Sequence record: OR999189.1
Source: Enterobacteria phage P922
Direction: 5' to 3' (one strand)
Length of the DNA stretch: 64,000 nt
Shown here: positions 1-19,348 of the stretch, one piece after another
Numbering within the stretch: the stretch's first letter is position 1
Layout of the letters: each line of letters starts with the position of its first letter
Made by a program: the position numbers and the translations under genes
The notes under the pieces: generated by a model
The model's input: only the letters and a program-made list of their open reading frames with translations
The model's database searches: none
Told to the model about the DNA's origin: nothing

Positions 1-578
1 TAATGAAATCTCTTTACCTCTGTTTGCACGTTATTAATGCCTTAGAAGCTATTCGTTTTTATGTATCTTTTGCATGTACCTTTAACTTCCATAAGAACAT
101 GGAAATCATGGAAGGTAATGCCAAGATTATGAAGTTCATTGCACGTGATGAGCAGCTTCACCTTAAAGGCACCCAATATATTATTCGTCAACTTCAATCC
201 GGTACTGATGGCGGCGAATGGGTTAAAATTGCTCAAGAGTGTGAACAAGAAGCAGTTGATATTTTCATGGAAGTTAACCGCCAAGAAAAAGATTGGGCAG
301 TTCATTTATTTAAAGATGGCGATGTTCCTGGATTAAATACAAATAGCATGTGGAGCTTTATTGATTACTTAACTGTATCTCGTATGAAACAGTGCGGTCT
401 TCCATGCCCAATTACCGATGCTCCGGTTAAACATCCATATCCTTGGATTCGTGAATACCTTAATTCTGATAATGTTCAATCCGCGCCACAAGAAGTAGAA
501 CTGTCATCTTACCTTGTTGCACAGATTGATAATGATGTTGATGATAAAGTTATGATGAGTTTTAAAAAATACTTTTAA
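1..578 (+). CDS. nrdB: Ribonucleotide reductase class Ia beta subunit, 3' part (5' end outside window)
   Basis: Translation aligns with the C-terminal half of R2 proteins (EAIRFYVSFAC, ARDEQLH, C-terminal SSYLVAQIDNDVDD tail); position upstream of denA as in T4. Confidence 0.93.
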   Translation, partial: MKSLYLCLHVINALEAIRFYVSFACTFNFHKNMEIMEGNAKIMKFIARDEQLHLKGTQYIIRQLQSGTDGGEWVKIAQECEQEAVDIFMEVNRQEKDWAVHLFKDGDVPGLNTNSMWSFIDYLTVSRMKQCGLPCPITDAPVKHPYPWIREYLNSDNVQSAPQEVELSSYLVAQIDNDVDDKVMMSFKKYF

Positions 579-582
579 GGAG

Positions 583-604
583 TGGGCCGCAAGGCCCATT
601 TTAT
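583..604 (+). terminator. GC hairpin (GGGCC-GCAA-GGCCC) followed by T-run after nrdB stop
   Basis: Inverted repeat with GNRA loop then TTTTATT, read directly. Confidence 0.5.
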
Positions 605-605
605 T

Positions 606-2193
<1,588 letters not shown>

Positions 2194-2195
2194 CT

Positions 2196-2225
2196 GTTTA
2201 CAAGTCCCTCGTGTTGTGTTATAGT
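2196..2225 (+). promoter_or_regulatory. T4-type early promoter (-35 GTTTAC, 18-bp spacer, -10 TATAGT) directly after rnlA stop
   Basis: GTTTAC at 2196-2201 and TATAGT at 2220-2225; near-identical cassette repeated at 18003. Confidence 0.6.
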
Positions 2226-2253
2226 AGACTTACTGACATAACATGAGGGCTTT

Positions 2254-2760
2254 ATGATGGATTTACAGCTTATTACTACTGAAATGGTCGTTGAAGCATA
2301 TGGTGATACTACAGATGGGATTTCTGTATTTAAAGGAAATCGTCGAGTTGGATATATCACCGATCTTAAGAAAGATTTAGCTAAGCAAGTCAAGCGGAAA
2401 ACGACCATTAAAGAATATCGAAATCGTCGTCTTGAGCAAGCCCGTGATATGCTTCCTGATGCGGTTGAGGAGATGAAAGTCTTTTTAGAAAATCAGCTTG
2501 CGAAATATGATTGCGAAGTATTCATTAATCAGACTCAACCTAATGTTCACATTAATAGCTGTAAATGCTACATCATCGTTAATCCTTTGACGGGAAAACA
2601 TCGTCTTGGAATTAGCAATCCAAATCGTAGTGCATCAGATATGGCAGAAGATGTTGAGGCATGCTTTAAAATTTCTAAATCTCCAGCTGAACATCATATT
2701 TTAATTAACGGTCTTTCTCAAGACGATATTGTAGAGGTTATTAAAACTTTATGCATGTAA
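2254..2760 (+). CDS. alc: Alc, blocks transcription of cytosine-containing host DNA, 168 aa
   Basis: Size (T4 Alc 167 aa) and position between rnlA and pseT.x; identity by synteny and recalled T4 order. Confidence 0.8.
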   Translation: MMDLQLITTEMVVEAYGDTTDGISVFKGNRRVGYITDLKKDLAKQVKRKTTIKEYRNRRLEQARDMLPDAVEEMKVFLENQLAKYDCEVFINQTQPNVHINSCKCYIIVNPLTGKHRLGISNPNRSASDMAEDVEACFKISKSPAEHHILINGLSQDDIVEVIKTLCM

Positions 2761-3104
2761 GTAATTTTACAGCTGGATTGCTATTACTTGTAATAGCATT
2801 TGGCGGAACTTCTTTAATTTTAAAAAGTAAAATTGAAAGATTAGAAACGTCTGTTGTAGAAATTACAAAAACGGCCAATGAAAACGCTTTAGCATTAAAT
2901 AATTTGCGAATTCAGTATAATTATATTGATGCGATGAATAATAAAAATCGTGAGGCAATTGCTGCTATTGAGCGTGAAAATGAAAAACTGCGCAAAGATG
3001 CAAAGAAGGCGGATGTGGTGGCTAATAAGCCAGGATTGGTTGAAAAACAAATCAACAACTCCTTCAACAAGTTCGCAGAAGACATCCAGGACCTTTCTAA
3101 ATGA
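2751..3104 (+). CDS. pseT.3: i-spanin (inner-membrane spanin subunit), 117 aa; T4 pseT.3 equivalent
   Basis: N-terminal TM helix (FTAGLLLLVIAFGGTSLIL) followed by coiled-coil-like periplasmic domain; immediately upstream of a lipoprotein ORF. Confidence 0.75.
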   Translation: MHVSNFTAGLLLLVIAFGGTSLILKSKIERLETSVVEITKTANENALALNNLRIQYNYIDAMNNKNREAIAAIERENEKLRKDAKKADVVANKPGLVEKQINNSFNKFAEDIQDLSK

Positions 3105-3400
3105 TTAAACTATCAGCAGTAATATTATCTATTGGTCTTCTAGTTGGTTGTTCGACAAAGCCTCTAGAAGTAAAGAAAGAAACAGTTCATCCTAATTGGC
3201 CTGTGCAAATAAAGTCATATGACGAAGCTAAACTATCTTGGCAAGTTAAAGTTATTGATGGTAAAGCTTGGGTCGGTATGCCATTCGAAGATTCTCAGGA
3301 ATTTCGTATTTGGCTTAATGATGTAAAACGATATGTACATGACCAAAAAACTATGATATGTTATTATCGTCAAGAGCTAAAAGAGGATAAATGTAAATGA
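3101..3400 (+). CDS. pseT.2: o-spanin (outer-membrane lipoprotein spanin subunit), 99 aa; T4 pseT.2 equivalent
   Basis: Signal peptide plus lipobox LLVGC-S, C-terminal Cys residues; ATGA overlap with upstream i-spanin ORF. Confidence 0.75.
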   Translation: MIKLSAVILSIGLLVGCSTKPLEVKKETVHPNWPVQIKSYDEAKLSWQVKVIDGKAWVGMPFEDSQEFRIWLNDVKRYVHDQKTMICYYRQELKEDKCK

Positions 3401-3623
3401 TTTCATGGCATCAATTTGAACATCTCAAAGGATTGATTTATGAATCTGAGATGGCTGCAATGATTTATGGACGCCAGATTCAACGATTAGAATCTTTACC
3501 TCCAACTAATGATGTTTTATTAGCTCAATCACGTGCTAATCTCAAAAATGAATATCAAAATAAGTGGGGCAAAGCATCTAAAGACCTGCATGATTATATT
3601 CAATCATTGGTTGAGAAAAATAA

Positions 3624-3627
<4 letters not shown>
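3397..3627 (+). CDS. Hypothetical early protein, 76 aa
   Basis: ORF with ATGA-type overlap to neighbours in early operon; no recognisable motif. Confidence 0.5.
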
Positions 3628-4845
<1,218 letters not shown>

Positions 4846-4846
<1 letters not shown>

Positions 4847-5043
4847 TGGCTTGGCATCATGAAACTTGGTCTATTGTTATTGTAAATAGCGGTTTAGTTG
4901 GTACTAGTAATGGGCAATTTTGTGTTTTCACTAGTGAAAACAGAGCTTGGGAGGAATGTCTTAAATTAAGAGAAAAGAATCCTGATGTTGAACTAACAGT
5001 AAAGAAAACTAAACTGCCTTTACCATGGAAAACTTATGAATAA
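4846..5043 (+). CDS. Hypothetical small protein, 65 aa (cd.x cluster)
   Basis: ORF in compact early operon between pseT and cd. Confidence 0.5.
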
Positions 5044-5236
5044 TCTAGAAAAGATTTATCGACTTTGTGATAAAATTGAAAAAGAAAAGAAATATCTATT
5101 TTGTTTATGGCCTATTGTAGATGGAAGAGTAGGCTTAGATGTTCTTGATTATGAAACAGAAGACAAAGTAGATGGTTCAATTTTTGATAACGCTTTGGAT
5201 GTTATTGATTGGCTTGAAGAAAATTATGTGAGGTAA
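5036..5236 (+). CDS. Hypothetical small protein, 66 aa (cd.x cluster)
   Basis: ORF in compact early operon. Confidence 0.5.
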   Translation: MNNLEKIYRLCDKIEKEKKYLFCLWPIVDGRVGLDVLDYETEDKVDGSIFDNALDVIDWLEENYVR

Positions 5237-5238
5237 AT

Positions 5239-5514
5239 ATGTTTCCGACTTACTCTAAAATCGTAGAAGTAGTGTTTAGCCAAATTATCGCTAATAACAT
5301 GTTTGAAAAGCTTGATAACGCAGCTGAGCTTCGAATTCATGCTCAAGTGACTCATGTATTGAACGCTTTGCTTCCAGACCAAGTGGATTCTATTGCAATT
5401 ACGCTGTATCCAGGTTCCGCGCATATCATTGTCGTATTCGGTCTTGATGCTGAGCTAGTCATCAAAGGCGATATTCGTTTTGAATCGCAGACAGCAGAAT
5501 TCAAAGCAATTTAA
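5239..5514 (+). CDS. Hypothetical small protein, 91 aa (cd.x cluster)
   Basis: ORF in compact early operon. Confidence 0.5.
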   Translation: MFPTYSKIVEVVFSQIIANNMFEKLDNAAELRIHAQVTHVLNALLPDQVDSIAITLYPGSAHIIVVFGLDAELVIKGDIRFESQTAEFKAI

Positions 5515-5516
5515 CA

Positions 5517-5555
5517 GTTTACTTTAAGGTAGAGTTGTGATATTATAGCTCTACC
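5517..5555 (+). promoter_or_regulatory. T4-type early promoter (GTTTAC, 18 bp, TATTAT) with 7-bp inverted repeat enclosing the -10
   Basis: GTTTAC 5517-5522, TATTAT 5541-5546, GGTAGAG 5528-5534 / CTCTACC 5549-5555. Confidence 0.55.
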
Positions 5556-5576
5556 AAAACAAATGAGGAAATTGAA

Positions 5577-6104
5577 ATGAGCGAATGGTTTGAAGAAGAT
5601 AAGGTTTATCGCTTTAAAGCTGGATATAAAGATATTTTTAATGAAACTTGTGGGGCTAATAAACGAATTGCCCAGTTTATTGGGGAAAATTCATTTAAAG
5701 TAAAAATAGATCCTGCGAAAAATGTTATTAGTATTAAACGCGAAATTGACGATTGCTGGTATAAAGCTGTTGATGTAATGGGCGAATCTTATAAAGATAG
5801 CCCGCTATTTTCAATTACTTATATGTCAGAATATTATTTTTTCGAAGAAGTTCAAAAAGATGACTCTATCAGTAAATTTGAAATTAAAACTGATAAAGAA
5901 ATTAAGTGGAAAGTAGTAGGTATTACTGGTTGTATGTTTTATATCTATGCTCAAACTGATACGAAGGAAGAAGCTAAAAAGAAAGCTCTAGAATATCTTG
6001 AAGAGTATGAAGAAGGCCCGGTAATGATTACCCAAGATGCCGAATTAGTTTCTGTCAAATTAGTTAAAAACGTTGAAAGTAAGGAGCTAGGATCAACATG
6101 CTAA
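5577..6104 (+). CDS. Hypothetical protein, 175 aa (cd.x cluster)
   Basis: ORF with SD GAGGAA upstream, own early promoter. Confidence 0.6.
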   Translation: MSEWFEEDKVYRFKAGYKDIFNETCGANKRIAQFIGENSFKVKIDPAKNVISIKREIDDCWYKAVDVMGESYKDSPLFSITYMSEYYFFEEVQKDDSISKFEIKTDKEIKWKVVGITGCMFYIYAQTDTKEEAKKKALEYLEEYEEGPVMITQDAELVSVKLVKNVESKELGSTC

Positions 6105-6334
6105 GCGAAAAACCAATTACTGTTAAAGAATTCCAAGAAAAAGTTAAACTATTTGCTCAGGAATTGGTAAATAAGGTTTCTGAACGATTTCCTGAAACAT
6201 CGGTTCGTGTTATTACCGAAACTCCTCGTTCAGTATTAGTAATTGTGAATCCAGGCGATGGTGACCAAATAACACATCTTAAACTGGATTTTGATGGATT
6301 AGTTGAAGCACAAAGGGTGTATGGCGTACTATGA
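6098..6334 (+). CDS. Hypothetical small protein, 78 aa
   Basis: ORF overlapping neighbours by a few nt. Confidence 0.5.
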   Translation: MLSEKPITVKEFQEKVKLFAQELVNKVSERFPETSVRVITETPRSVLVIVNPGDGDQITHLKLDFDGLVEAQRVYGVL

Positions 6335-6669
6335 TGAATTTAACTGATATAATTGATAATTGTCTTGAAAATGATACTGGCGATCATAGAGCGCTTGATT
6401 CTGAAACAGCACAGTTCATTAGAATAACTTTAATGAATGATACTCTAGTGAATAGTATTCATCCTTCTGTGTATGATGCTATTATTGTGACGAAGTATCC
6501 AGTTGAGCTTCACAAAAAGATGGCTGGTGCAATTTTTATTGATAAGAAAAACCGCTTTAAAGATGGGCAGAATATAATTAGTTCTGTTATTAAAAGTATA
6601 ACTAAACTTCGCCACGAAATTTATCGTGTTGAAACTGCTAAATCTGCTTATCTGGTGATTATGAAATGA
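6331..6669 (+). CDS. Hypothetical small protein, 112 aa
   Basis: ORF with ATGA overlap to cd. Confidence 0.5.
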   Translation: MMNLTDIIDNCLENDTGDHRALDSETAQFIRITLMNDTLVNSIHPSVYDAIIVTKYPVELHKKMAGAIFIDKKNRFKDGQNIISSVIKSITKLRHEIYRVETAKSAYLVIMK

Positions 6670-7247
6670 AAGCGAGTACAGTACTTCAAATTGCATATTT
6701 AGTATCACAAGAATCAAAATGTTGCTCCTGGAAGGTAGGAGCAGTAATTGAAAAGAATGGACGTATTATTTCTACCGGATATAATGGTTCACCTGCAGGT
6801 GGTGTGAACTGTTGTGATTATGCTGCTGAGCAAGGTTGGTTGCTGAATAAACCTAAACATACTATCATTCAAGGTCATAAGCCCGAATGTGTATCATTTG
6901 GTTCAACGGATCGTTTTGTCTTAGCGAAAGAACACCGTAGTGCTCACTCTGAATGGTCGTCTAAAAATGAAATTCATGCTGAACTAAATGCGATTTTGTT
7001 TGCTGCACGAAACGGTTCTTCAATTGAAGGTGCTACTATGTATGTAACACTTTCTCCTTGCCCAGATTGTGCAAAAGCGATAGCTCAATCTGGTATTAAA
7101 AAGCTGGTTTATTGCGAAACATACGATAAAAATAAACCTGGCTGGGATGATATTCTGCGAAATGCGGGTATTGAAGTGTTTAATGTTCCTAAGAAAAACT
7201 TAAATAAGTTAAATTGGGAAAATATCAACGAATTCTGTGGTGAATAA
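6666..7247 (+). CDS. cd: dCMP deaminase, 193 aa
   Basis: Cytidine/deoxycytidylate deaminase zinc motifs HAELNAI and PCPDCA; T4 cd length 193 aa. Confidence 0.93.
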   Translation: MKASTVLQIAYLVSQESKCCSWKVGAVIEKNGRIISTGYNGSPAGGVNCCDYAAEQGWLLNKPKHTIIQGHKPECVSFGSTDRFVLAKEHRSAHSEWSSKNEIHAELNAILFAARNGSSIEGATMYVTLSPCPDCAKAIAQSGIKKLVYCETYDKNKPGWDDILRNAGIEVFNVPKKNLNKLNWENINEFCGE

Positions 7248-7483
7248 TGAAATTTCGTTTGGTACAGCTCACAGCAATTAGTTCTTATTCTAACGAGAAC
7301 ATTTCATTTGCTGTAGAGTATAAGAAATATTTTTTCTCTAAATGGAAGCAGTATTATAAGTCAGAATGGGTTTGTATTGATAGACCGTATAGTTGGAAAT
7401 CTGATTTAGAAAAATGCCAAAAATTGCTTTCCACTCTTAAAGAACGTGGAACAACTCATATTAAAACTGTAATAGGTAAATAA
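7247..7483 (+). CDS. Hypothetical small protein, 78 aa (T4 31.2 position)
   Basis: ORF between cd and gene 31. Confidence 0.5.
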   Translation: MKFRLVQLTAISSYSNENISFAVEYKKYFFSKWKQYYKSEWVCIDRPYSWKSDLEKCQKLLSTLKERGTTHIKTVIGK

Positions 7484-7792
7484 ATGAAACTGACAACTGA
7501 ACAGAAAGTAGCAATTCGTGAAATTTTGAAAACTAAATTGTCCATGGGTATTTCAAACGTGGTTTTTGAAAAGTCTGATGGTACTATTCGTACTATGAAA
7601 GGCACTCGTGATGCTGACTTTATGCCAACTATGCAAACCGGTAAATTGACTGAATCTACTCGGAAAGAATCTACTGATATGATTCCGGTATTTGATGTTG
7701 AGCTCGGTGCATGGCGAGGTTTTTCTATTGACAAATTGATTTCCGTTAATGGTATGAAAGTTGAGCATTTGCTTCAATTTATTGGTAAATAA
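7484..7792 (+). CDS. Hypothetical small protein, 102 aa (T4 31.1 position)
   Basis: ORF between cd and gene 31. Confidence 0.55.
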   Translation: MKLTTEQKVAIREILKTKLSMGISNVVFEKSDGTIRTMKGTRDADFMPTMQTGKLTESTRKESTDMIPVFDVELGAWRGFSIDKLISVNGMKVEHLLQFIGK

Positions 7793-7826
7793 ATGCTTTA
7801 AGAATTATTTGTTATTATTAATTCAT
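7793..7826 (+). promoter_or_regulatory. Candidate MotA-dependent middle promoter for gene 31
   Basis: MotA-box-like ATGCTTTA about 12 bp upstream of TATTAT; gene 31 is known to be middle-transcribed in T4. Confidence 0.4.
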
Positions 7827-7848
7827 CTGTTAACAAAAAGGAAAAACG

Positions 7849-8184
7849 ATGTCTGAAGTACAACAGCTACCAATTCGTGCTGTCGGTGAATATGTTATTT
7901 TAGTTTCTGAACCTGCGCAAGCCGGTGATGAAGAAGTTACAGAATCAGGACTTATTATCGGTAAACGTGTTCAAGGTGAAGTTCCTGAACTGTGTGTAGT
8001 TCACTCCGTTGGTCCTGATGTTCCTGAAGGTTTCTGCGAAGTTGGTGATTTGACTTCTCTTCCAGTTGGTCAAATTCGAAACGTTCCGCATCCTTTTGTA
8101 GCTCTGGGACTTAAGCAGCCAAAAGAAATTAAACAAAAATTCGTTACCTGTCACTATAAAGCTATTCCGTGTCTTTATAAGTGA
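7849..8184 (+). CDS. 31: Co-chaperonin gp31 (GroES analogue for capsid folding), 111 aa
   Basis: Length 111 aa and position between cd and rIII as in T4. Confidence 0.9.
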
Positions 8185-8192
8185 TATAAATA
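8185..8192 (+). promoter_or_regulatory. Late promoter core TATAAATA downstream of gene 31 stop
   Basis: Exact TATAAATA octamer. Confidence 0.4.
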
Positions 8193-8331
8193 ATAATATG
8201 AATTGGGTGTCGGAATAATAAGTTAACCGAACAATTCTACGTGGTAGTCTACAACTGAGAGATCTGTCGAAAGAAGATGAAATTCAGAAGAACGTGACTA
8301 CCGAGTTTTAATCTCTAACGAGAATTTTTAA

Positions 8332-8580
8332 ATGATTAAACAATTACAACACGCTCTTGAACTGCAACGAAACGCATGGAATAATGGTCACGAAAACTAT
8401 GGCGCATCTATTGATGTTGAAGCCGAAGCTCTTGAAATCCTGCGTTATTTCAAACATCTGAATCCTGCTCAAACTGCATTAGCTGCTGAGCTTCAGGAAA
8501 AAGATGAACTTAAATATGCTAAGCCTTTGGCTTCTGCCGCACGAAAAGCAGTTCGTCACTTTGTGGTAACACTGAAGTAA
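8332..8580 (+). CDS. rIII: rIII lysis-inhibition accessory protein, 82 aa
   Basis: Length 82 aa and position next to gene 31 as in T4. Confidence 0.85.
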   Translation: MIKQLQHALELQRNAWNNGHENYGASIDVEAEALEILRYFKHLNPAQTALAAELQEKDELKYAKPLASAARKAVRHFVVTLK

Positions 8581-8776
8581 TTTATTGGAGATTCACTGCC
8601 TTAGTGTGAGCTAAAATCGAGGAGCCGTCGAACTGTCTGATTAATGATTTGCGAATCATTATAGTTTTAAGACCCCGACAGTTTTACGGTGTACCTCTTG
8701 AATGTTGACGAGGTTTATGGTTATCCTGTCGGTAAATATTCAAAACCTAAGTACCCCTTGAGGGCTTTCGCAGGCA

Positions 8777-8995
8777 ATGCCAATAAGTCCTGCATTTTCA
8801 TTTAAAAGAGAATTTATAATGGCAAAACAAGCTAAAGCAAAGAAAGCAGTTGAAAAGAAAGTTGGTGATTCTAAACGCGCTGGCTACAAGCGTGGGTCGA
8901 ACTCTCGTATCAATCAAACTGTTGAGAAGATCATGCGCCGAGCACGTGCGGTTCTTCGAGATGATGCTTCTCGTTTTGGTAAGCAGAAAGCATAA
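8777..8995 (+). CDS. Small highly basic protein (T4 30.9 position); probable true start ATG 8819 (58 aa)
   Basis: Lys/Arg-rich ORF MAKQAKAKKAVEKK...; followed by strong terminator. Confidence 0.5.
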   Translation: MPISPAFSFKREFIMAKQAKAKKAVEKKVGDSKRAGYKRGSNSRINQTVEKIMRRARAVLRDDASRFGKQKA

Positions 8996-9000
8996 GTTGA

Positions 9001-9029
9001 GGACTCCTTCGGGAGTCCTTTTTTATTTT
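9001..9029 (+). terminator. Rho-independent terminator
   Basis: GGACTCC-TTCG-GGAGTCC hairpin followed by TTTTTTATTTT. Confidence 0.75.
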
Positions 9030-9047
9030 CCAAAGATTGCACAAAGT

Positions 9048-9099
9048 TGTTTACAGTATGGTTCCTTTGTGATAGTATTATCTTACACAAACAAAGGAG
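9048..9099 (+). promoter_or_regulatory. T4-type early promoter with inverted repeat pairing spacer to downstream SD
   Basis: GTTTAC 9048-9053, -10 near 9072-9078, TCCTTTGTG 9063-9071 vs CACAAACAAAGGA 9086-9098. Confidence 0.5.
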
Positions 9100-9105
9100 A
9101 ATAAA

Positions 9106-9429
9106 ATGAAAACGATTAATCTGAACGCTACAGTTAAAACTAAATGCTTCAATGGTAAATATGATGAAACTATGTGGTTCTTAATGGCAGTTGAAGGTGA
9201 TATTATTGAAGTAGAAACAACAGAAGGTATGGGAACAGATTTCACCTTTACAATTCAAGTTCATAATTTCTTTACTGGTTGGATTTATGAATTGAATACA
9301 GTAATCGTTGGAAAAATTGAACAAAATGAATTAGGTGAATGGTATTATGTTACAGCGCGCCAACGTGCCGAACGCTTAATTGAGAAGATGAAAAAGTTGG
9401 TAAACTTGACATGCAGCACTGGAAAGTAG
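9106..9429 (+). CDS. Hypothetical protein, 107 aa (T4 30.8 position)
   Basis: ORF with SD AGGAG, preceded by early promoter. Confidence 0.6.
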   Translation: MKTINLNATVKTKCFNGKYDETMWFLMAVEGDIIEVETTEGMGTDFTFTIQVHNFFTGWIYELNTVIVGKIEQNELGEWYYVTARQRAERLIEKMKKLVNLTCSTGK

Positions 9430-9439
9430 TAAAATAATT

Positions 9440-9479
9440 GTTTACTTTGGTACAGGATATGATATTATATACCTGTACC
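9440..9479 (+). promoter_or_regulatory. T4-type early promoter (GTTTAC, 17 bp, TATTAT) with perfect 8-bp inverted repeat enclosing -10
   Basis: GTTTAC 9440-9445, TATTAT 9463-9468, GGTACAGG 9449-9456 / CCTGTACC 9472-9479. Confidence 0.6.
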
Positions 9480-9504
9480 GCAATTAAACATCTCGGAGAA
9501 TAAA

Positions 9505-9870
9505 ATGAACTACATCAACTTTGAACGTAAATATGTTTCTAACGGTATTGCAGGTTCTATTGATACTATCTGCCTTTGGAAACATCAAAATGGATCAGTA
9601 TGCGAAATTGAACAGTATATGACTCCTAATTACGTTTATATGCGATTTGAAAATGGCATCACGGTTTCAATCACGAAAGAAGGTTCTTCTTTTAAAATCG
9701 CATTAGATGATGATTTTCGTCAACGTGATTTAGGTACCCATCCTTGCTGGAACGGCGTTAATCGTAAGCTTCTGGTTAAAACTTGGATTCGTCATATTCT
9801 GAGTAACAGAGCTAAACCTGAGCATCTTGAAGCAATCTTTGATGTAGTTCTTAACGAATTTGATATTTAA
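9505..9870 (+). CDS. Hypothetical protein, 121 aa (T4 30.7 position)
   Basis: ORF with SD GGAGAA. Confidence 0.6.
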   Translation: MNYINFERKYVSNGIAGSIDTICLWKHQNGSVCEIEQYMTPNYVYMRFENGITVSITKEGSSFKIALDDDFRQRDLGTHPCWNGVNRKLLVKTWIRHILSNRAKPEHLEAIFDVVLNEFDI

Positions 9871-9878
9871 AATAAAAC

Positions 9879-9894
9879 AGGGGCTTCGGCCCCT
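9879..9894 (+). other. Intercistronic RNA hairpin (AGGGGC-TTCG-GCCCCT), no T-run
   Basis: Perfect 6-bp GC stem with UUCG loop. Confidence 0.5.
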
Positions 9895-9910
9895 TACTGA
9901 GGAAAATACT

Positions 9911-10198
9911 ATGTTTATGACTACTTATTTTGATACCCGCAAAAATTTCTGTGAAGTAGTTTTCTCTAAGGCGCCTAAAGACCTTCCTGCTCATTTGCAG
10001 CCTACCAGTGAATCGATTAAAAACTACGTTAATGTAGTCTGCCCTTTAGAGTTCCGTACTGTAAATGGGCGTGATACTCTAGCTATCACTAAACTCAATC
10101 GTGAAATTGACATTGACCCTTCAATTGCGCATGAAATTAATATTTCTGACATTGGTGGTGGTAATGTTAAATCGCACGGATTTCAGATGAGGTTCTAA
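9911..10198 (+). CDS. Hypothetical protein, 95 aa (T4 30.6 position)
   Basis: ATG 9911 with SD GAGGAA; ORF-track start 9860 would translate through the hairpin. Confidence 0.5.
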   Translation: MFMTTYFDTRKNFCEVVFSKAPKDLPAHLQPTSESIKNYVNVVCPLEFRTVNGRDTLAITKLNREIDIDPSIAHEINISDIGGGNVKSHGFQMRF

Positions 10199-10395
10199 TG
10201 AAATTCTTTTTGGGTCAAACTGTTGAATTAAAGGGAGTCGGTATACCTGGATTAATTTCTAAGGTTTTGCCTGCATTTAAATGGAGAGACGTTCAAATAA
10301 AAGAAGCTTATATTGTTTCTTGGGTAGATGGAAATGAAGACCTTCGTATGGGCGATGAATTATCTCCTATCTATGGATTAAAGGAATTAGTATGA
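10198..10395 (+). CDS. Hypothetical small protein, 65 aa
   Basis: ORF, ATGA overlap. Confidence 0.5.
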   Translation: MKFFLGQTVELKGVGIPGLISKVLPAFKWRDVQIKEAYIVSWVDGNEDLRMGDELSPIYGLKELV

Positions 10396-10598
10396 ATATA
10401 ATTAATAAGATTTTTGGAATTCAGTACATTAAGGTCACATATAAAGTAACATATAAAGGTCCGTATACCGATGAACATGAAGAACCACAAGTTAAGTCTA
10501 TTATATTAGAAAAGGACCCTAACTGGCCAGTTGAATTTCGTCTTCCTTGCTATGGTCATTGGGCTGATGTTGAAATTATAAGTATTGAAAATGTCTGA
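10392..10598 (+). CDS. Hypothetical small protein, 68 aa
   Basis: ORF, ATGA overlap. Confidence 0.5.
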   Translation: MNIINKIFGIQYIKVTYKVTYKGPYTDEHEEPQVKSIILEKDPNWPVEFRLPCYGHWADVEIISIENV

Positions 10599-11049
10599 GC
10601 TAGAGATAAGAAGCAATTTTAGATGGCCATCATGTGCATTAAGCAATTTCGCTCAATGGCCTTTCGTTATGGATGGTATCCAATTTGGAGGTCTCGAAGG
10701 ATTCCTCCAAGGATGTAAGGTGAAAAATGTTGAGCAGCAAAGACGTATATTTGGGATGTCCGGGCTTGCCGCCCAACAAGCTGGAAGGTCTTATGCTAGA
10801 GCTCAGGACCGTGGGACCCTCTTTTGGCTTGGAGTTCCATTTTCAAGATACTCTCCAGCATGGAAAGAATTATACACAAATGCATATTTTGAAGCAGCAA
10901 TCCAAAACAGGGGCTTTCGTGATGCATTACAAGCCTCAAAAGGAAAAGTTTTGAAGCACAGCATGGCTAGTGGTCTAACAAAAGATGATACAATACTAAC
11001 CGAAGCTGAATTTATTGATGTGTTAAACCTATTAAGAGACTCTCTATGA
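10585..11049 (+). CDS. NADAR-like (YbiA/DUF1768-like) protein, 154 aa
   Basis: N-terminal motif LSNFAQWPFVMDGIQFGGLEGFLQGCKV resembles the SNFxxWP...DG...E(H)xFQ signature of YbiA-family proteins; C-terminal WG motif not evident. Confidence 0.6.
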   Translation: MKMSELEIRSNFRWPSCALSNFAQWPFVMDGIQFGGLEGFLQGCKVKNVEQQRRIFGMSGLAAQQAGRSYARAQDRGTLFWLGVPFSRYSPAWKELYTNAYFEAAIQNRGFRDALQASKGKVLKHSMASGLTKDDTILTEAEFIDVLNLLRDSL

Positions 11050-11885
11050 AGCCAACTATTTTAACTGATATTGATGGAGTATGTTTAAGCTGGCAATCAG
11101 GCCTTCCTTATTTTGCTCAGAAATATAATCTTCCATTAGAACATATTTTAAAAATGATCCAAGATGAGAAATTTATTTCTCCGGGTAAACTCTTTAATTG
11201 TGACGAAGAACTTGGCGTCAAGTTAATTGAAAAATACAATCGTTCAGATTTTATTCGTTACTTGTCTCCGTATAAAGATGCCCTGTGTGTAATTAACAAA
11301 TTAAAAGAAGATTATAATTTTGTAGCTGTTACAGCATTGGGTGATTCTATTGACGCTCTGTTGAATCGTCAATTTAATTTGAATGCTCTTTTTCCTGGTG
11401 CTTTCTCGGAAGTAATGATGTGTGGTCATGATTCTTCAAAAGAAGAGCTGTTCAAAAAGGCAAAAGAGAAATATAACGTAATTTGTTATATTGACGATCT
11501 CGCTCATCACTGCGATCATGCGAGTGAAATATTAAATGTTCCAGTTTATTGGATGGCTCGAGGAGAGCGTGACAATATTCCAAAAACTGCGCAGCGAGTT
11601 TATACATGGAATGATGTAGAAAATAAGCTTTTTTCACCAAAGGAAAATAAAGAAAGTTTTGATAGTGAAAAAGCTATAAAAGATTTAATTGAGAAGATGG
11701 TTAAAAACGATTCTTTTCCTTGGAACACTACCTGGAGAACGCCTGGATTAAATCCTTATAATCATCTATATCATCCATATCAGACACATCCGTTTCAGAC
11801 ATGGAACTATATTAAACCTGGTGGCATAGAGTATTTGTATAATAGACCTACTAGTGGTGATAATATTTTTCAAGGAGCATTCTAA
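11046..11885 (+). CDS. HAD-superfamily hydrolase-like protein (possible nucleotidase), 279 aa
   Basis: N-terminal HAD motif I ILTDIDGV; translationally coupled to NADAR-like ORF. Confidence 0.6.
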   Translation: MKPTILTDIDGVCLSWQSGLPYFAQKYNLPLEHILKMIQDEKFISPGKLFNCDEELGVKLIEKYNRSDFIRYLSPYKDALCVINKLKEDYNFVAVTALGDSIDALLNRQFNLNALFPGAFSEVMMCGHDSSKEELFKKAKEKYNVICYIDDLAHHCDHASEILNVPVYWMARGERDNIPKTAQRVYTWNDVENKLFSPKENKESFDSEKAIKDLIEKMVKNDSFPWNTTWRTPGLNPYNHLYHPYQTHPFQTWNYIKPGGIEYLYNRPTSGDNIFQGAF

Positions 11886-12154
11886 TGTTTGTTGTTCATA
11901 CTATTTATGAAAATGAAGGTAATACTACACGTGATTACGGCCACGTAAATCAATTTTTTAGATGCAATCCAGAATTCCGAGCTCAAAAAGACGAACGAAT
12001 TTTTAAAAAATGTGTAGAACAAGGTTTCATTTACGTCAAGCACTGGATGCAAGGAAATAAAGTTAGAACTACATATCATAAGTCTTTGCCTGAGCTTAAT
12101 GATGAATTGATTTATAATAGAGCTGTAAACCAAACCCTGAAGGATGAGCAATGA
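11885..12154 (+). CDS. Hypothetical small protein, 89 aa (T4 30.1 position)
   Basis: ORF coupled to ligase gene. Confidence 0.5.
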   Translation: MFVVHTIYENEGNTTRDYGHVNQFFRCNPEFRAQKDERIFKKCVEQGFIYVKHWMQGNKVRTTYHKSLPELNDELIYNRAVNQTLKDEQ

Positions 12155-13611
12155 TTCTTAAAATTCTGAATGAAATAGCATCTATTGGATCAACTAAACA
12201 GAAGCAAGCAATTCTTGAAAAGAATAAAGATAATGAATTGCTTAAACGAGTATATCGTCTGACTTATTCTCGTGGGTTACAGTATTATATCAAGAAATGG
12301 CCTAAACCTGGTATTGCTACCCAGAGTTTTGGAATGCTGACTATTACTGATATGCTTGACTTCATTGAATTCACGTTAGCTACTCGGAAATTAACTGGCA
12401 ATGCAGCAATTGAGGAATTAACTGGATATATCACCGATGGTAAAAAGGATGATGTTGAAGTTTTGCGTCGAGTTATGATGCGAGACCTTGAATGTGGTGC
12501 TTCAGTATCTATTGCAAACAAAGTTTGGCCAGGTTTAATTCCTGAACAACCTCAAATGCTGGCAAGTTCTTATGATGAAAAAGGCATTAGTAAGAATATC
12601 AAGTTTCCAGCCTTTGCGCAGTTAAAAGCAGACGGAGCTCGGTGTTTTGCTGAAGTCCGAGGCGATGAATTAGATGATGTTCGTCTTTTATCACGAGCTG
12701 GTAATGAATATCTAGGATTAGATCTTCTTAAGGAAGAGTTAATCAAAATGACTGCTGAAGCCCGCCAGATTCATCCAGAAGGTGTGTTAATTGATGGCGA
12801 ATTGGTATACCATGAGCAAGTTGAAAAGGAACCAGAAGGCCTAGATTTTCTTTTTGATGCTACTGAAATCAGTAAAGCTAAAGACTTCACAGAAGTAGCT
12901 GAATCTCGTACTGCTTCTAATGGAATCGCTAATAAATCTTTAAAGGGAACCATTTCTGAAAAAGAAGCCAAATGCATGAAGTTTCAGGTCTGGGATTATG
13001 TCCCGTTGGTAGAAATATACGGTCTTCCGGCGTTTCGTTTAAAATATGATGTACGTTTTTCTAAACTAGAACAAATGACATCAGGATATGATAAAGTAAT
13101 TTTAATTGAAAACCAGGTAGTAAATAACCTAGATGAAGCTAAGGTAATTTATAAAAAATATATTGACCGAGGTCTTGAAGGTATTATTCTCAAAAATACC
13201 GATGGATTGTGGGAAAATGCTCGTTCAAAAAATCTCTATAAATTTAAAGAAGTAATTGATGTTGATTTAAAAATTGTAGGAATTTATCCTCACCGTAAAG
13301 ACCCTACTAAAGCAGGTGGATTTATTCTTGAATCAGAATGCGGAAAAATTAAAGTAAACGCTGGTTCAGGTTTAAAAGATAAAGCTGGTGTAAAATCACA
13401 TGAACTTGACCGTACTCGCATTATGGAAAACCAAAATTATTATATTGGAAAAATTCTAGAGTGCGAATGCAATGGTTGGTTAAAATCTGATGGCCGCACT
13501 GATTACGTTAAATTATTTCTTCCAATTGCGATTCGTTTACGTGAAGATAAAACTAAAGCTAATACATTCGAGGATGTATTTGGTGATTTTCATGAGGTAA
13601 CTGGTCTATGA
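12151..13611 (+). CDS. 30: ATP-dependent DNA ligase, 486 aa
   Basis: Adenylation motif KADGAR (AQLKADGARCF); length matches T4 gp30 (487 aa). Confidence 0.95.
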   Translation: MILKILNEIASIGSTKQKQAILEKNKDNELLKRVYRLTYSRGLQYYIKKWPKPGIATQSFGMLTITDMLDFIEFTLATRKLTGNAAIEELTGYITDGKKDDVEVLRRVMMRDLECGASVSIANKVWPGLIPEQPQMLASSYDEKGISKNIKFPAFAQLKADGARCFAEVRGDELDDVRLLSRAGNEYLGLDLLKEELIKMTAEARQIHPEGVLIDGELVYHEQVEKEPEGLDFLFDATEISKAKDFTEVAESRTASNGIANKSLKGTISEKEAKCMKFQVWDYVPLVEIYGLPAFRLKYDVRFSKLEQMTSGYDKVILIENQVVNNLDEAKVIYKKYIDRGLEGIILKNTDGLWENARSKNLYKFKEVIDVDLKIVGIYPHRKDPTKAGGFILESECGKIKVNAGSGLKDKAGVKSHELDRTRIMENQNYYIGKILECECNGWLKSDGRTDYVKLFLPIAIRLREDKTKANTFEDVFGDFHEVTGL

Positions 13612-13796
13612 AAGCTTACTTAGAAACAATTGTCGTTGCTCAAAAAGAAGGTGGAGATGTTTCTACTTCTGTATCACAAATCGTTCTTGAATTTGTAGAT
13701 GCATATGCTTATAATAAATTTACAGAAACATTTGATGCCTATGAAAAAGGTCCGAAGTTTGAAATATACCGTACTCTCTTACCACTAGATTATTAA
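13608..13796 (+). CDS. Hypothetical small protein, 62 aa
   Basis: ORF overlapping ligase stop (ATGA). Confidence 0.5.
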   Translation: MKAYLETIVVAQKEGGDVSTSVSQIVLEFVDAYAYNKFTETFDAYEKGPKFEIYRTLLPLDY

Positions 13797-13820
13797 AGGC
13801 CTTCGGGCCTTTAATTTTAT
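13795..13820 (+). terminator. Hairpin terminator (AAAGGCC-TTCG-GGCCTTT) plus T-rich tail
   Basis: Read directly. Confidence 0.6.
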
Positions 13821-13825
13821 AAATA
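13818..13825 (+). promoter_or_regulatory. Late promoter TATAAATA upstream of alt
   Basis: Exact TATAAATA about 20 bp upstream of alt ATG; Alt is a packaged virion protein so late expression is expected. Confidence 0.55.
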
Positions 13826-13848
13826 GAATAAACACTAGAGAGGATATG

Positions 13849-15942: not shown

Positions 15943-15945
15943 ATC

Positions 15946-18003
15946 ATGGAACTTATTACAGAATTATTTGACGGCGCTTCGGCGCCGGTTGTTAACTTAA
16001 ACCCGAAGCATAAAATACCTCAAATTTTTGCTATTCAAGCAGGTGAAGAAAGCGTGCTTCCTGGATTTAGATTTTGTACATACACCTCTGGCGGTGATAC
16101 AAATAAAAACGTTAAGCCAGGCGATAAAATGATGCATATCGTAATGATAGGTGTCAATGAAAAGCTATCATTAGTTAAACTTAAAAACTTAGGTGGAAAT
16201 CCAATTGGTGTCATTAATGCGGTTTTTGATACTGCTCTTCAAACAATGAAACAGTATAAAATTGATGCATGCTTATTCCGCGTACTAAAGAGCAAAACAA
16301 ATGGAGCTGCTCGTCAAATGCAAGTTATTGCCGACCGTTTAGTACGTACTAAAGGAGCAGGTCGATATGTTCTTTTAAAGGAAATCTGGGACTATGATAA
16401 GAAATATGCATATATTATGGTTTACCGCAAAAATGCCAATTTAGAAGACATTCCAGGTGTACCTCCTATTTCAACTGAGTTATTCACAAAGGTTGAATCA
16501 AAGGTTGGTGATGTTTATGTAGATGTTAAAACAGGTAATGCTGTTCCTAAAGCTGTTGCTGTTGCTGCTTCTATTGCTTTAGAAAATGATAAGCGCACAG
16601 ATCAAGCTGTAATTCAGAAAACTAAAATTAGTCGTCGATTAGCAGCACAAGCTCAATACTCTACTGTCGATGCTTCACTTCAGGGTGATAGCTTCGCCGC
16701 TAAGAAATATCAAGAGTTTGAATCTAAAGTTCCGGTATATAAAGCAGAAGGACCAATGAACTCCGGCGTTATTCAGGTTGGTTCAAACTTCAGCAAAGGA
16801 GCTATCGGTGGTATGAGGAGTGCTTCTCGTTTTAAATCTAGTGATTATGAACTAGAAAGCTTCCGAAATCATATTGCATTGGCCCATGCGCGTTTACGTG
16901 ATCCATCTATTAAATTACAGAGCGATATAACATATCAAGGTTCTCAAGAATATTTAAAGAATAAAGAATTTTTTGATTATAAAACTGATAAAATTTTAAG
17001 CGATCTTGCTGACATTAATATTTCTAATAGCTTTGATGTTATTAAGAAAATTGTCAATGATTTAGTTAAAGGTTCTAAAGCCACGCCAGACGAAAAGGTA
17101 GCTATTGTTCAATTTGTCATGAATGGCATTTATAAATTGATTAATGAGTCTGCTTCTCAAGCGTATGAATATGCAAGTACTGAAGTACCCCCAAAAGGAT
17201 TAACTCAGGCTGAGTCTGATGTAATTGAAGATTATTGCGCGGATTCATATGTTGAAATGAACTCGTTCCTTTTAGGTAAACCGGATTCTACTCGTGAAGA
17301 ATACATGGAACGAGCTATTAAACACATCGAGACAATGGATTCTGCCTTTGCCAAAGGATCAGTTCTTCCTCCAGGAACTACGCTTTATCGTGGACAAGAA
17401 GTTACCTTTAAAACTTTACGTCATAATATTGAAAATAAAATGTTCTATTTTAAGAACTTCGTATCCACATCGCTTAAACCAAATATCTTCGGTGAGTATG
17501 GTAAAAACTATATGGCTCTAGATGATTCCAGTACAGTATTTTCTGGTGAAGGAGAAGGTTCAGTTGACGCAGAAGATTTGATGCATATGGGCAGTCATTC
17601 TTCTTATGCGAATGAAGATGCTGAAACTAGCGTGGGTATGGTAATTAAAGGAGCTGAGCGAATCAAAGTTATCGTTCCGGGTCATTTATCAGGATTTCCA
17701 TCAGAAGCTGAAGTTATTTTACCACGTGGAATTTTGCTGAAGATTAATAAAGTGAGTACGTACATGATGAAAGAAACTGCTTATAACAAGTATTTAATCG
17801 AAGGCACAATCGTTCCTCCTTCTGAACAATTAGAAGAATCGGTATATGATGGCGATCATCTGATGGAAACTGGTGAAGTTCGTCCAATGGCTGGGTTTAA
17901 TCAATTCCTTGTAGAAGAATCAAAAGAAGAGGAAAACGAAGTTTCTCAAATCTTAGCTTCTTTGGTTAACATCAACGGAATGTCTAAAAAGTTCAAGATG
18001 TAG
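15946..18003 (+). CDS. Alt-like ADP-ribosyltransferase paralog, 685 aa
   Basis: Same N-terminus MELITELFD, conserved blocks and ART motifs (TLYRGQ, FVSTSL, EAEVILPRG), divergent middle; starts 3 bp after alt stop. Confidence 0.85.
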   Translation: MELITELFDGASAPVVNLNPKHKIPQIFAIQAGEESVLPGFRFCTYTSGGDTNKNVKPGDKMMHIVMIGVNEKLSLVKLKNLGGNPIGVINAVFDTALQTMKQYKIDACLFRVLKSKTNGAARQMQVIADRLVRTKGAGRYVLLKEIWDYDKKYAYIMVYRKNANLEDIPGVPPISTELFTKVESKVGDVYVDVKTGNAVPKAVAVAASIALENDKRTDQAVIQKTKISRRLAAQAQYSTVDASLQGDSFAAKKYQEFESKVPVYKAEGPMNSGVIQVGSNFSKGAIGGMRSASRFKSSDYELESFRNHIALAHARLRDPSIKLQSDITYQGSQEYLKNKEFFDYKTDKILSDLADINISNSFDVIKKIVNDLVKGSKATPDEKVAIVQFVMNGIYKLINESASQAYEYASTEVPPKGLTQAESDVIEDYCADSYVEMNSFLLGKPDSTREEYMERAIKHIETMDSAFAKGSVLPPGTTLYRGQEVTFKTLRHNIENKMFYFKNFVSTSLKPNIFGEYGKNYMALDDSSTVFSGEGEGSVDAEDLMHMGSHSSYANEDAETSVGMVIKGAERIKVIVPGHLSGFPSEAEVILPRGILLKINKVSTYMMKETAYNKYLIEGTIVPPSEQLEESVYDGDHLMETGEVRPMAGFNQFLVEESKEEENEVSQILASLVNINGMSKKFKM

Positions 18004-18056
18004 TTTACAAGTCCCTCGTGTTGTGTTATAATAATTTTACTTACATAACATGAGGA
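18003..18056 (+). promoter_or_regulatory. T4-type early promoter cassette (GTTTAC, 17 bp, TATAAT), near-identical to cassette at 2196
   Basis: 28 bp identical to 2196-2223, followed by similar AACATGAGG SD-containing arm. Confidence 0.6.
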
Positions 18057-18063
18057 ACACAAA

Positions 18064-18354
18064 ATGAAATCTTCTTTACGCTTTTTAGGTCAAGAGCTTG
18101 TAGTTGAAGGCGTTATTCCTGCTGATAACGCTTTTAATGAAGCAGTTTACGATGAATTTATCAAAATTTTTGGAACAGATAAAAAGTTCGGAATTTTTCC
18201 TTCTGAAAATTTCTCAAAGCCAGAACAGACTGAAAGCATTTTCCAGGGTGTAGTAACAGGTAAATTTGAGTCAGAAGCTCCGGTAAAAATTGAAGTTTAT
18301 ATTGAAGACAGTTTAGTTGCTTCAGTTGCTGCTTTTATTTCATTCCGTAAATAA
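18064..18354 (+). CDS. Hypothetical protein, 96 aa (downstream of alt)
   Basis: ORF with SD GAGGAA and own early promoter. Confidence 0.6.
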   Translation: MKSSLRFLGQELVVEGVIPADNAFNEAVYDEFIKIFGTDKKFGIFPSENFSKPEQTESIFQGVVTGKFESEAPVKIEVYIEDSLVASVAAFISFRK

Positions 18355-18358
18355 AAAT

Positions 18359-18380
18359 ATGGGGACCGAAAGGTCCCCAT
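18359..18380. terminator. Bidirectional hairpin between convergent early (+) and late (-) transcription units
   Basis: ATGGGGACC-GAAA-GGTCCCCAT perfect 9-bp stem. Confidence 0.6.
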
Positions 18381-18382
18381 TG

Positions 18383-19348
18383 TTATATTGCTCCTAATAT
18401 TTTACTTTGCGAATTGACAATTCCTGTCATAGTATTAATGTTTGAAATGCTTCCCGCAGTTCCTCCTAATCTACTAAGTCGTGAAAGCGAATTAGATAGT
18501 CCAGTAACACCTCCACTATTTCCGAGAACGCTTTGAATGCCATTTATAGCAGCAGATTCAAGCCACTCAAGCGCAGCTTGTCTATCAACCGACCCAGCCT
18601 GCATGACTCTATACGCAAAAGTAACATCAAATGTAGTTATTTGGTTATCTCCATCATATGATAACTCAGGAGCACTCACTGACACTGGAATGCATCCGGT
18701 GAACATCACAGCAGTATGAGGTAATCCATTACGAGCATGAAGATTAACCTGAATGTCTGCCTCGACATCTTGCGGCAAAGCACGCAGTCCAGTTACTGGG
18801 TCTTGAACAGCATTAACCCAGTCTTGCATTGCACGATAGTTACAAGCTTCTGAATCCATCCTAAATGAAATAACCAAAGGGTCTAATTCTCTCCCAGTTA
18901 TACGAATATTAGGAGAATTATAGTTCCAGTCAGTTTCATAGGATAATCTATTCTCTGGCATTTTTACGGAATATATCATCAATCCAGATGAGTTATATGC
19001 CATGTTAAAGAAGTCAATTAAATATGTACCAACTGTAAATGAGCCCAATAAACTTTGAACTGTACGTTGACTCATGGCACCAATAAGATATTTACTAACC
19101 CCTGATTTTCTTATCAGTTTTTGTGTGCCAGCGGTAATTAGCGTGGTAATTCCCTGATTAATATCGCCTTGAGTCAATCCTAACCAATCTGAATTTAGAC
19201 CCAAGTTATTATAAGAAAAGTTGCTAATTGAACTTATCAACGAAGAGCTTTTAGTTGATGGAGCTGTCGCAAAAACGCAGCTAAACATATTATTACGCTG
19301 GAAATCTGCGTTTATTGCTTGATTATTAAATTCCTCTAAAGAATACAT
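18383..19348 (-). CDS. 54: Baseplate tail-tube initiator gp54, 321 aa
   Basis: Length and order 54-48-29-28-27-51 match T4. Confidence 0.9.
   Translation of the reverse strand: MYSLEEFNNQAINADFQRNNMFSCVFATAPSTKSSSLISSISNFSYNNLGLNSDWLGLTQGDINQGITTLITAGTQKLIRKSGVSKYLIGAMSQRTVQSLLGSFTVGTYLIDFFNMAYNSSGLMIYSVKMPENRLSYETDWNYNSPNIRITGRELDPLVISFRMDSEACNYRAMQDWVNAVQDPVTGLRALPQDVEADIQVNLHARNGLPHTAVMFTGCIPVSVSAPELSYDGDNQITTFDVTFAYRVMQAGSVDRQAALEWLESAAINGIQSVLGNSGGVTGLSNSLSRLSRLGGTAGSISNINTMTGIVNSQSKILGAI

Follow-up and report, generated by a model that had tools for sequence, protein, structure and literature searches.

A repeated early-promoter cassette in a T4-type phage with a predicted hairpin covering the Shine-Dalgarno sequences of alc and alt.-3

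The DNA considered here (the window, i.e. the whole stretch of 64,000 nucleotides) belongs to Enterobacteria phage P922 (sequence record OR999189.1), a T4-type phage of the genus Tequatrovirus, and its + strand corresponds to the minus (early) strand of T4. It is collinear with T4 over 933-14655 (T4 137600-124696) and again over 17984-20000 (T4 123112-121101). Two copies of a short intergenic cassette, each combining a putative early promoter with a Shine-Dalgarno (SD) sequence, precede the following genes:

2254..2760, + strand: alc (inhibitor of host transcription), served by copy 1
18064..18354, + strand: open reading frame (ORF) of 96 amino acids (aa), homolog of T4 alt.-3, served by copy 2

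Copy 1 is situated between rnlA (ORF 1033-2193) and alc and begins 2 nt past the rnlA stop codon, while copy 2 is situated between the second full-length alt paralog (ORF 15946-18003) and the alt.-3 homolog, its first base being the G of the paralog's stop codon TAG. Both begin with the 28-mer GTTTACAAGTCCCTCGTGTTGTGTTATA, which occurs exactly twice on the + strand (2196-2223 and 18003-18030), and both continue to ACATAACATGAGG and an ATG at 2254 or 18064. A third site was not found in the window with up to 3 mismatches, and 100 shuffles yielded 0 matches. The original prediction, made from the letters of this DNA, had named this exact repeat as well as its position directly behind a stop codon and ahead of an SD and ATG, and both points agree with the repeat search and with the ORF ends at 2193 and 18003. 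The similarity is longer than it had stated, as 48 of 53 positions are identical from the -35 box through the SD GAGG. Since the match spans this interval and the sequences flanking the two copies are unrelated on both sides, the repeated unit can be delimited exactly as the stretch between the -35 box and the SD, both included. Both copies are also present in T4 (53 of 54 positions identical to each other), the two copies of one metagenomic Tequatrovirus contig are identical at 54 of 54 positions, and the query finds two places in essentially all of 499 Tequatrovirus records.

The promoter part of the cassettes comprises the following elements:

2196..2225, + strand: copy 1 early promoter (alc), with -35 GTTTAC at 2196-2201, then 18 nt, TGn at 2217-2219 and -10 TATAGT at 2220-2225; orthologous site in T4
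18003..18032, + strand: copy 2 early promoter (alt.-3 homolog), with -35 GTTTAC at 18003-18008, TGn and -10 TATAAT at 18027-18032; ortholog in T4
2232, + strand: predicted start of the alc promoter, placed by geometry 7 nt past the -10 box; RNA from 2232 lacks the 5' arm of the hairpin described below

Both copies had been proposed to be early promoters, and this is supported by GTTTAC, the 17-nt spacer between the sigma-70 hexamers, TGn and a near-consensus -10 box (TATAGT in copy 1, TATAAT in copy 2). GTTTACA at 2196-2202 and 18003-18009 matches the T4-type early -35 element GTTTAC(A/T) in both copies, and with scores of 10/12 for TTTACA-17-TATAGT and 11/12 for TTTACA-17-TATAAT, each with TG, they rank among the best sigma-70-like sites of the early region. 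Judged by eye, the -35 box is preceded by an A/T-rich GAAAAATTATAAAAAATTTAT at copy 1 and a weaker TCTAAAAAGTTCAAG at copy 2. GTTTAC, TGn and a -10 box near TATAAT are shared with the catalogued T4 early promoters of the Pe series (e.g. Pe133295), and the A/T-rich sequence upstream of copy 1 may be a further likeness. Placing +1 seven nt after the -10 box predicts starts at 2232 and 18039, equivalent to T4 positions of about 136300 and 123057; applied to the neighbouring promoter at window 5517, the same rule points to T4 133295, which is the annotated Pe133295. The T4 RefSeq and GenBank records hold no promoter features at these two junctions, and the record of phage JB75 is the only phage record annotating one, marked by a prediction tool. 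In published T4 omics data, alc and alt.-3 are classed as early RNA.

Besides the promoter, both copies contain two complementary arms:

2202..2220, + strand: copy 1 5' arm (AAG, a bulged U, then CCCUCGUGUUGUGUU), in the promoter spacer, holding the anti-SD CCCTC
2235..2252, + strand: copy 1 3' arm (GACAUAACAUGAGGG plus CUU), with the SD GAGG at 2245-2248 ahead of the alc ATG at 2254
18014..18026, + strand: copy 2 5' arm CCUCGUGUUGUGU, from the computed fold
18043..18055, + strand: copy 2 3' arm ACAUAACAUGAGG, with the SD GAGG at 18052-18055, downstream of the predicted start at ~18039 and ahead of the ATG at 18064

RNA reading through from the upstream gene is predicted to form a hairpin of 19-22 bp that places the -10 box and the predicted start at the apex and the SD GAGG within the 3' arm. 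The helix of copy 1 consists of 15 contiguous pairs (2206-2220 with 2235-2249), three of them G-U, to which a base (2202-2204 with 2250-2252, U2205 bulged) and a 4-bp apical stem are added; in copy 2 there are 13 pairs (18014-18026 with 18043-18055). With -26.5 kcal/mol (z = -4.8) for copy 1 and -19.0 kcal/mol (z = -4.1) for copy 2, these folds were matched in stability by 0 of 200 shuffles each, and the spacer-leader duplex of copy 1 (-23.8 kcal/mol) by 0 of 500 spacer shuffles. RNAs beginning at the predicted starts show no unusual structure and leave the SD uncovered (z = -0.7 and +0.25 for copies 1 and 2, respectively). The computed cost of opening the SD is 9.4-11.5 kcal/mol in the read-through RNA versus 2.0-2.2 kcal/mol in the self-initiated RNA for copy 1, and 11.4-11.9 versus 2.7 kcal/mol for copy 2. 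This is in line with the proposal that read-through RNA sequesters the SD and promoter-initiated RNA leaves it free. The 10-bp stem with one G-U pair described for copy 1 is present as well, but forms only the base of a helix about twice as long, which encloses the -10 box and the start. All five mismatches between the copies are apical, between the arms, and the apical sequence that copy 2 has here is found in a minority of phages (of the 499 records, 3 match at >=99% and 368 lie in the T4-like 90-95% band). Within window 1-19000, neither cassette has an Rfam match at E <= 1.

Further support for the pairing comes from comparison of the alc junction across genera. The rnlA-alc junction is kept in all genera examined, and in seven genera the gaps measure 56-68 nt between rnlA and alc and 57-60 nt between alt and alt.-3. 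Seven genera plus 36 viral-contig loci gave 30 distinct alc cassettes. Three Gaprivervirus loci (L017, L018, L044) were excluded, as alc is split there, the upstream region differs and the true start is uncertain. In these VR25/VR26-type phages the alc match comes in two pieces spanning ~740 bp, not 500, which suggests an insertion within alc, and the upstream region holds a G+C-rich hairpin and no GTTTAC promoter. A MAFFT alignment of the 30 cassettes brought the 5' arms into register but not the 3' arms and was excluded from pair counting. A covariance model was also set aside, as its alignment was polluted by spurious and minus-strand matches, the latter because the element is near-palindromic, and held the Tequatrovirus stems in poor register. 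Covariation was measured instead by a register-free swap test, a geometry-anchored pair table and an exact-register subfamily count.

In Melville, WG01, VR5, Kosakonia 305 and Marfa, the alc arms differ in sequence and the pairing between spacer and SD is kept; RB69 lacks it. The arms (5'/3') read CCCTCGTGTT/AACATGAGGG in T4, CCTCGTTTGTT/AACAAACGAGG in Marfa, CTCCATTTCGTT/AACGAAATGGAG in Kosakonia 305, TCTCCGTTT/AAACGGAGA in Melville and TCTCCTCATG/CATGAGGAGA in VR5. A spacer-leader duplex of -14.8 kcal/mol or lower that covers the SD is found in 22 of the 30 cassettes. When the spacers of 12 clade representatives were combined with their own leader, the mean was -13.4 kcal/mol, versus -7.7 kcal/mol with the leaders of other clades (0 of 20,000 permutations as low), and seven of the 12 beat all 500 spacer shuffles. 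Two-sided compensatory changes occur at 15 of 20 stem positions, with the 5' positions set by promoter geometry. In the exact-register subfamily of eight sequences, 91.9% of cells are paired, compared with 36-46% when the partners are slid, and its covariation score was reached by 0 of 500 shuffles. By covariation, the predicted pairing at alc is conserved across genera. Tequatrovirus alone would not reveal this: its arms are invariant within the genus and give no covariation, as would be expected of a functionless hairpin with chance self-complementarity whose copies are alike through recent copying. The maintained pairing in five other genera with different sequences, the outcome of the swap test and the seven representatives that surpass their shuffles contradict such a chance origin, and we consider it the least credible of the explanations weighed here.

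The two cassettes are the most similar pair within a wider architecture and not unique. Among 41 early-promoter-like sites on the early strand of T4, the spacer pairs with the SD of the served gene in eight (class A: duplex <= -11 kcal/mol, z <= -3.7), namely motB.2, nrdC.8, regB, denV, alt.-3, 30.8, alc and ndd.4; RegB production has been described as requiring strict control. Many other T4-type early promoters have inverted repeats that miss the SD and either flank only the -10 box (class B) or lie inside the spacer (class C).

Possible sources of read-through RNA, and the end of the unit holding copy 2, are the following:

1017..1045, + strand: MotA-box-like middle-promoter candidate upstream of rnlA (TGCTTC, spacer, TACTAT; pattern match only), a possible read-through source into copy 1
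13818..13825, + strand: late-promoter consensus TATAAATA directly upstream of the first alt paralog (ATG 13846), a likely late read-through source into copy 2
18359..18380, no strand assigned: bidirectional terminator-like hairpin after alt.-3, facing gene 54, which ends the transcription unit holding copy 2

The site at 1017-1045 does not appear among the mapped T4 middle promoters in a 2010 table; the mapped middle promoters PnrdA, PnrdB and PI-TevIII lie further upstream of rnlA on the same strand. Between 13818 and 18359, the terminator scan gave no terminator-like site on the + strand.

Taken together, we favour, with moderate confidence, the reading that both copies are early promoters with an embedded SD-sequestering hairpin that gates translation. 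Each copy would be a sigma-70-type T4 early promoter with an anti-SD in its spacer. RNA arriving from upstream, through rnlA from middle or delayed-early promoters at copy 1 and through alt from the late promoter at copy 2, would contain both arms, so that the hairpin would bury the SD of alc or alt.-3 and translation would be poor. RNA from the cassette's own promoter would start at the hairpin apex, carry the 3' arm only and present a free SD. As the early promoters of T4 fall silent after a few minutes, alc and alt.-3 would be translated in the immediate-early period only, despite continued transcription in longer RNAs; the gate probably limits synthesis of Alc and Alt.-3 to the first minutes of infection. 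In published T4 omics data Alc and Alt.-3 belong to the early-RNA/early-protein class and, of the flanking genes, rnlA to early-RNA/late-protein and pseT.3 to early-RNA/middle-protein, a pattern that fits the gate as a correlation only. In this context, the SD of alc and alt.-3 in Tequatrovirus (2245-2248 and 18052-18055) is GAGG(A/G) without GGAG, whereas most other genera have GGAG or GAGGAG at alc. The Tequatrovirus leaders may escape cleavage by RegB, which targets GGAG, and if they do, the hairpin gate would be the main way of silencing them.

Several observations weigh against this reading. Eight of the 30 alc cassettes have no SD pairing: the RB69 type, L042 and L043/L045 carry a spacer-internal hairpin and a free SD, and L025/L041 and L029 a stem that flanks only the -10 box. 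Judged from these cassettes, the SD gate is dispensable in some lineages. The class B and C stems hint at a more general, promoter-linked reason for inverted repeats. All seven detectable class A genes belong to the early-protein class, but this does not discriminate, because any gene that directly follows an early promoter should fall into this class. Furthermore, the ribosome that finishes rnlA or alt stops 9-13 nt short of the 5' arm and may melt a few pairs at the start of the stem. Finally, structure at the RNA level is not favoured overall, since the sense strand folds better in just 13 of 28 cases (p = 0.83), with a clear sense bias only in Tequatrovirus, whose stem has three G-U pairs.

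The lack of an overall strand asymmetry, with the antisense strand folding better in several genera, is what a DNA palindrome would show, and the inverted repeat might act as DNA, either by forming a cruciform or hairpin around the -10 box, with an effect on the opening or shut-off of the promoter, or as a preferred site of recombination, the RNA fold being incidental. These promoters often have inverted repeats with the -10 box at their centre, the shut-off of early promoters is described in the literature as not completely understood, and cassette exchange has occurred at these sites. On the other hand, the three G-U pairs of the Tequatrovirus stem become A-C mismatches on the other strand, a difference of 9 kcal/mol; the arms vary freely between genera, which leaves no conserved sequence-specific protein site; and in class A the 3' arm is positioned by the SD and not symmetric about the -10 box. 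A DNA-level role seems improbable to us.

The cassettes also recall the promoter-early-stem-loop (PeSL) elements, in which a terminator stem-loop lies just upstream of a strong early promoter and its AT-rich region, and which occur repeatedly in the genome and show signs of having recombined with each other, the exchange points falling after the -10 box and before the SD or ATG (Arbiol et al. 2010, PMC2839356; Comeau et al. 2014, PMC4122927). This resemblance, pointed out in the original prediction, holds for a short, repeated and recombining intergenic cassette of a strong sigma-70-like early promoter, SD and ATG, but not for the upstream terminator stem-loop. Here, the stop codon abuts the -35 box, leaving no room for such a terminator, and the stem extends across the promoter as far as the SD. 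Moreover, PeSLs flank small dispensable ORFs, whereas copies 1 and 2 flank ~15.8 kb including essential genes. The hairpin could nevertheless be the T4-group equivalent of the PeSL stem-loop, acting on the upstream transcript as attenuator, insulator or 3'-end protector, with SD coverage a by-product of a long stem in a 60-nt gap. The PeSL stem-loops of RB49 and phi1 were measured as effective terminators, the stems of many T4-type early promoters (classes B and C) never touch the SD, and the window itself holds a canonical terminator-plus-promoter pair at 8999-9020 and 9049. We nevertheless regard this role as unlikely. No U-tract follows the stem at alt.-3 or in Kosakonia 305 or Marfa, with only CUUUAU at alc, and the terminator scan made no call at either cassette. 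Moreover, the SD is where the 3' arm ends in 22 of the 30 alc cassettes, even though arms and loop sizes vary, and the small-loop stems of class B leave the SD free, so that coverage is not forced by geometry. An intrinsic terminator as such was rejected on the same grounds, as there is no U-run (CUUUAUG after the stem at alc, none at alt.-3) and no scan call.

A further possibility is that the long duplex serves as a processing site for RNase III, or another double-strand-specific enzyme, that splits rnlA/alc and alt/alt.-3 in polycistronic RNA. The stem is located exactly at the intercistronic junction, and 19-22 bp is within the usual size range of RNase III substrates. However, the stems of other genera often reach only 9-13 bp, none of the computed results points to cleavage, and a cut inside the stem would go through the SD, which makes such a function very improbable in our view.

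The translational gate that we favour has well-described relatives in T4. In e (lysozyme), soc, 49 and I-TevI, and also in I-TevII/III, Aeh1 mobE and segB, an intergenic hairpin holds the SD and/or AUG in long transcripts, and a promoter in or over the 5' arm gives rise to transcripts that lack this arm and are translated (PMC3014915). The alc and alt.-3 cassettes have the same geometry, as judged from computed folds and predicted starts, and the comparison with e and soc made in the original prediction is apt in this respect. The temporal direction is opposite: the embedded promoter of the known cases is a late one (TATAAATA) and early translation is blocked, whereas the sigma-70 early promoter of alc and alt.-3 would lead to a block of middle and late translation. 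The late-promoter sequence is absent from both cassettes, and the anti-SD lies in the promoter spacer, unlike in the e, soc, 49 and I-TevI cases. Since the embedded promoter is early and not late, the cassettes are a variant of the e/soc type rather than a member of it. A 2010 review of post-transcriptional control in T4 lists no example involving alc, alt.-3 or an early promoter (PMC3014915). A full-text literature search for alt.-3 and early-promoter stem-loops returned nothing specific, although the older T4 literature may already mention the structure.

The comparative data also allow insights into how the second copy arose. Outside Tequatrovirus, the alt.-3 promoter has a mini-hairpin within its spacer (CCACA-nGGA-TGTGG) and a free SD; pairing of the alc type at the alt.-3 SD is found only in Tequatrovirus. 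Most likely, an alc-type cassette replaced an older alt.-3 cassette in the Tequatrovirus ancestor by non-reciprocal recombination. The alc cassette appears to be the older copy because it is conserved across genera. VR5 (L008) has an identical 32-nt leader stretch, ACCTTACACAAACATGAGGAGAACATTATGAA, at alc and alt.-3 with differing promoter spacers, an identity missing in its congener WG01, and the pattern suggests that the conversion was recent and partial, its crossover falling between the -10 box and +1. In RB69, the alc spacer resembles the alt.-3 type, and the leader AACACGAGG is fully complementary to the T4 5' arm CCTCGTGTT, at a place where present-day T4 forms a G-U pair. These cases suggest that exchange between the alc and alt.-3 loci happened more than once, the direction and number of events being our reconstruction. 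The whole-cassette replacement at alt.-3 in Tequatrovirus, the VR5 leader swap and the RB69 alc spacer are comparative evidence of a likeness to PeSLs in recombination. An exact-pattern scan of viral contigs found only 7 loci, too few to test whether concerted evolution is still going on within Tequatrovirus.

Such non-reciprocal replacement differs from the deletion or duplication of the intervening 15.8 kb for which the repeats had been proposed as substrates, and that proposal did not hold up. The interval is collinear with T4 from alc through alt and contains homologs of genes 31 and 30, which are essential in T4, so that a deletion between the copies would be lethal. Likewise, a 15.8-kb tandem duplication would exceed the headful. 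PeSLs are described from hyperplastic regions with variable ORFs and indels next to them. Next to copy 2, phages carry between 1 and 3 alt paralogs. There are two full-length ones in the window at 13846-18003 (698 and 685 aa), while WG01 has three, VR5 two, and RB69, Kosakonia 305 and Marfa one. T4 has one alt and the remnants alt.-1 and alt.-2, with the 3' end of the lost second copy kept right up to the cassette.

If the gate exists, it would add a simple cis-acting mechanism to the stop of immediate-early expression in T4, the reference system for temporal gene control, where this stop is so far partly explained by promoter shut-off and RegB cleavage. It would also explain why Alc, whose effect on host transcription is needed immediately, falls into the early class when the proteins of co-transcribed neighbouring genes accumulate later, and it would mean that promoter spacers, usually seen as nearly free sequence, can carry a post-transcriptional signal. 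The gate would be an early-promoter version of the e/soc/49/I-TevI type. The alt.-3 replacement and the VR5 leader swap indicate that a single recombination step can transfer this kind of control to another gene. As a wider and clearly more tentative idea, about a fifth of the T4 early promoters might be self-licensing translation units, with an anti-SD in the spacer by which only RNA born there would be translatable. This could form a conserved control layer of the Tevenvirinae that ends immediate-early synthesis at promoter shut-down alongside RegB cleavage, the cassettes being copied between loci as units.

T4 has another repeated cassette family with this design, at nrdC.8 (L056, ~53885-53945) and ndd.4 (L057, ~166749-166810); the two are ~80% identical, lie ~113 kb apart and keep the spacer-SD pairing through compensatory differences. 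In the window, a strong terminator-like hairpin at 8999-9020 is followed by the early-promoter-like site at 9049. The spacer of this site is likewise predicted to pair with the SD of the gene behind it, a homolog of T4 30.8 with its ATG at 9106. The segment 8999-9110 resembles a canonical terminator-plus-promoter (PeSL-like) unit that has the SD-pairing design as well. A weak Rfam match to Atu_C8 at 8951-9034 (E 0.007, below the gathering score) overlaps this terminator and is probably due to chance.

At the early-promoter-like sites at 5517-5575 and 9440-9510, inverted repeats of 8-12 bp (GGTAGAG...CTCTACC and GGTACAGG...CCTGTACC) enclose the -10 box alone and do not cover the SD, a class that is common in RB69, WG01, VR5, Kosakonia 305 and Marfa. 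Compared with T4, the window contains an additional ~315-bp segment at 3630-3944 with an ORF of 106 aa (3624-3944) between the homologs of pseT.1 and pseT, and a 519-bp segment at 5580-6098 with an ORF of 175 aa (5577-6104). The latter directly follows the leader of the 5517 promoter, the equivalent of T4 Pe133295, and, judged from its position, is the kind of promoter-adjacent indel that the PeSL model predicts.

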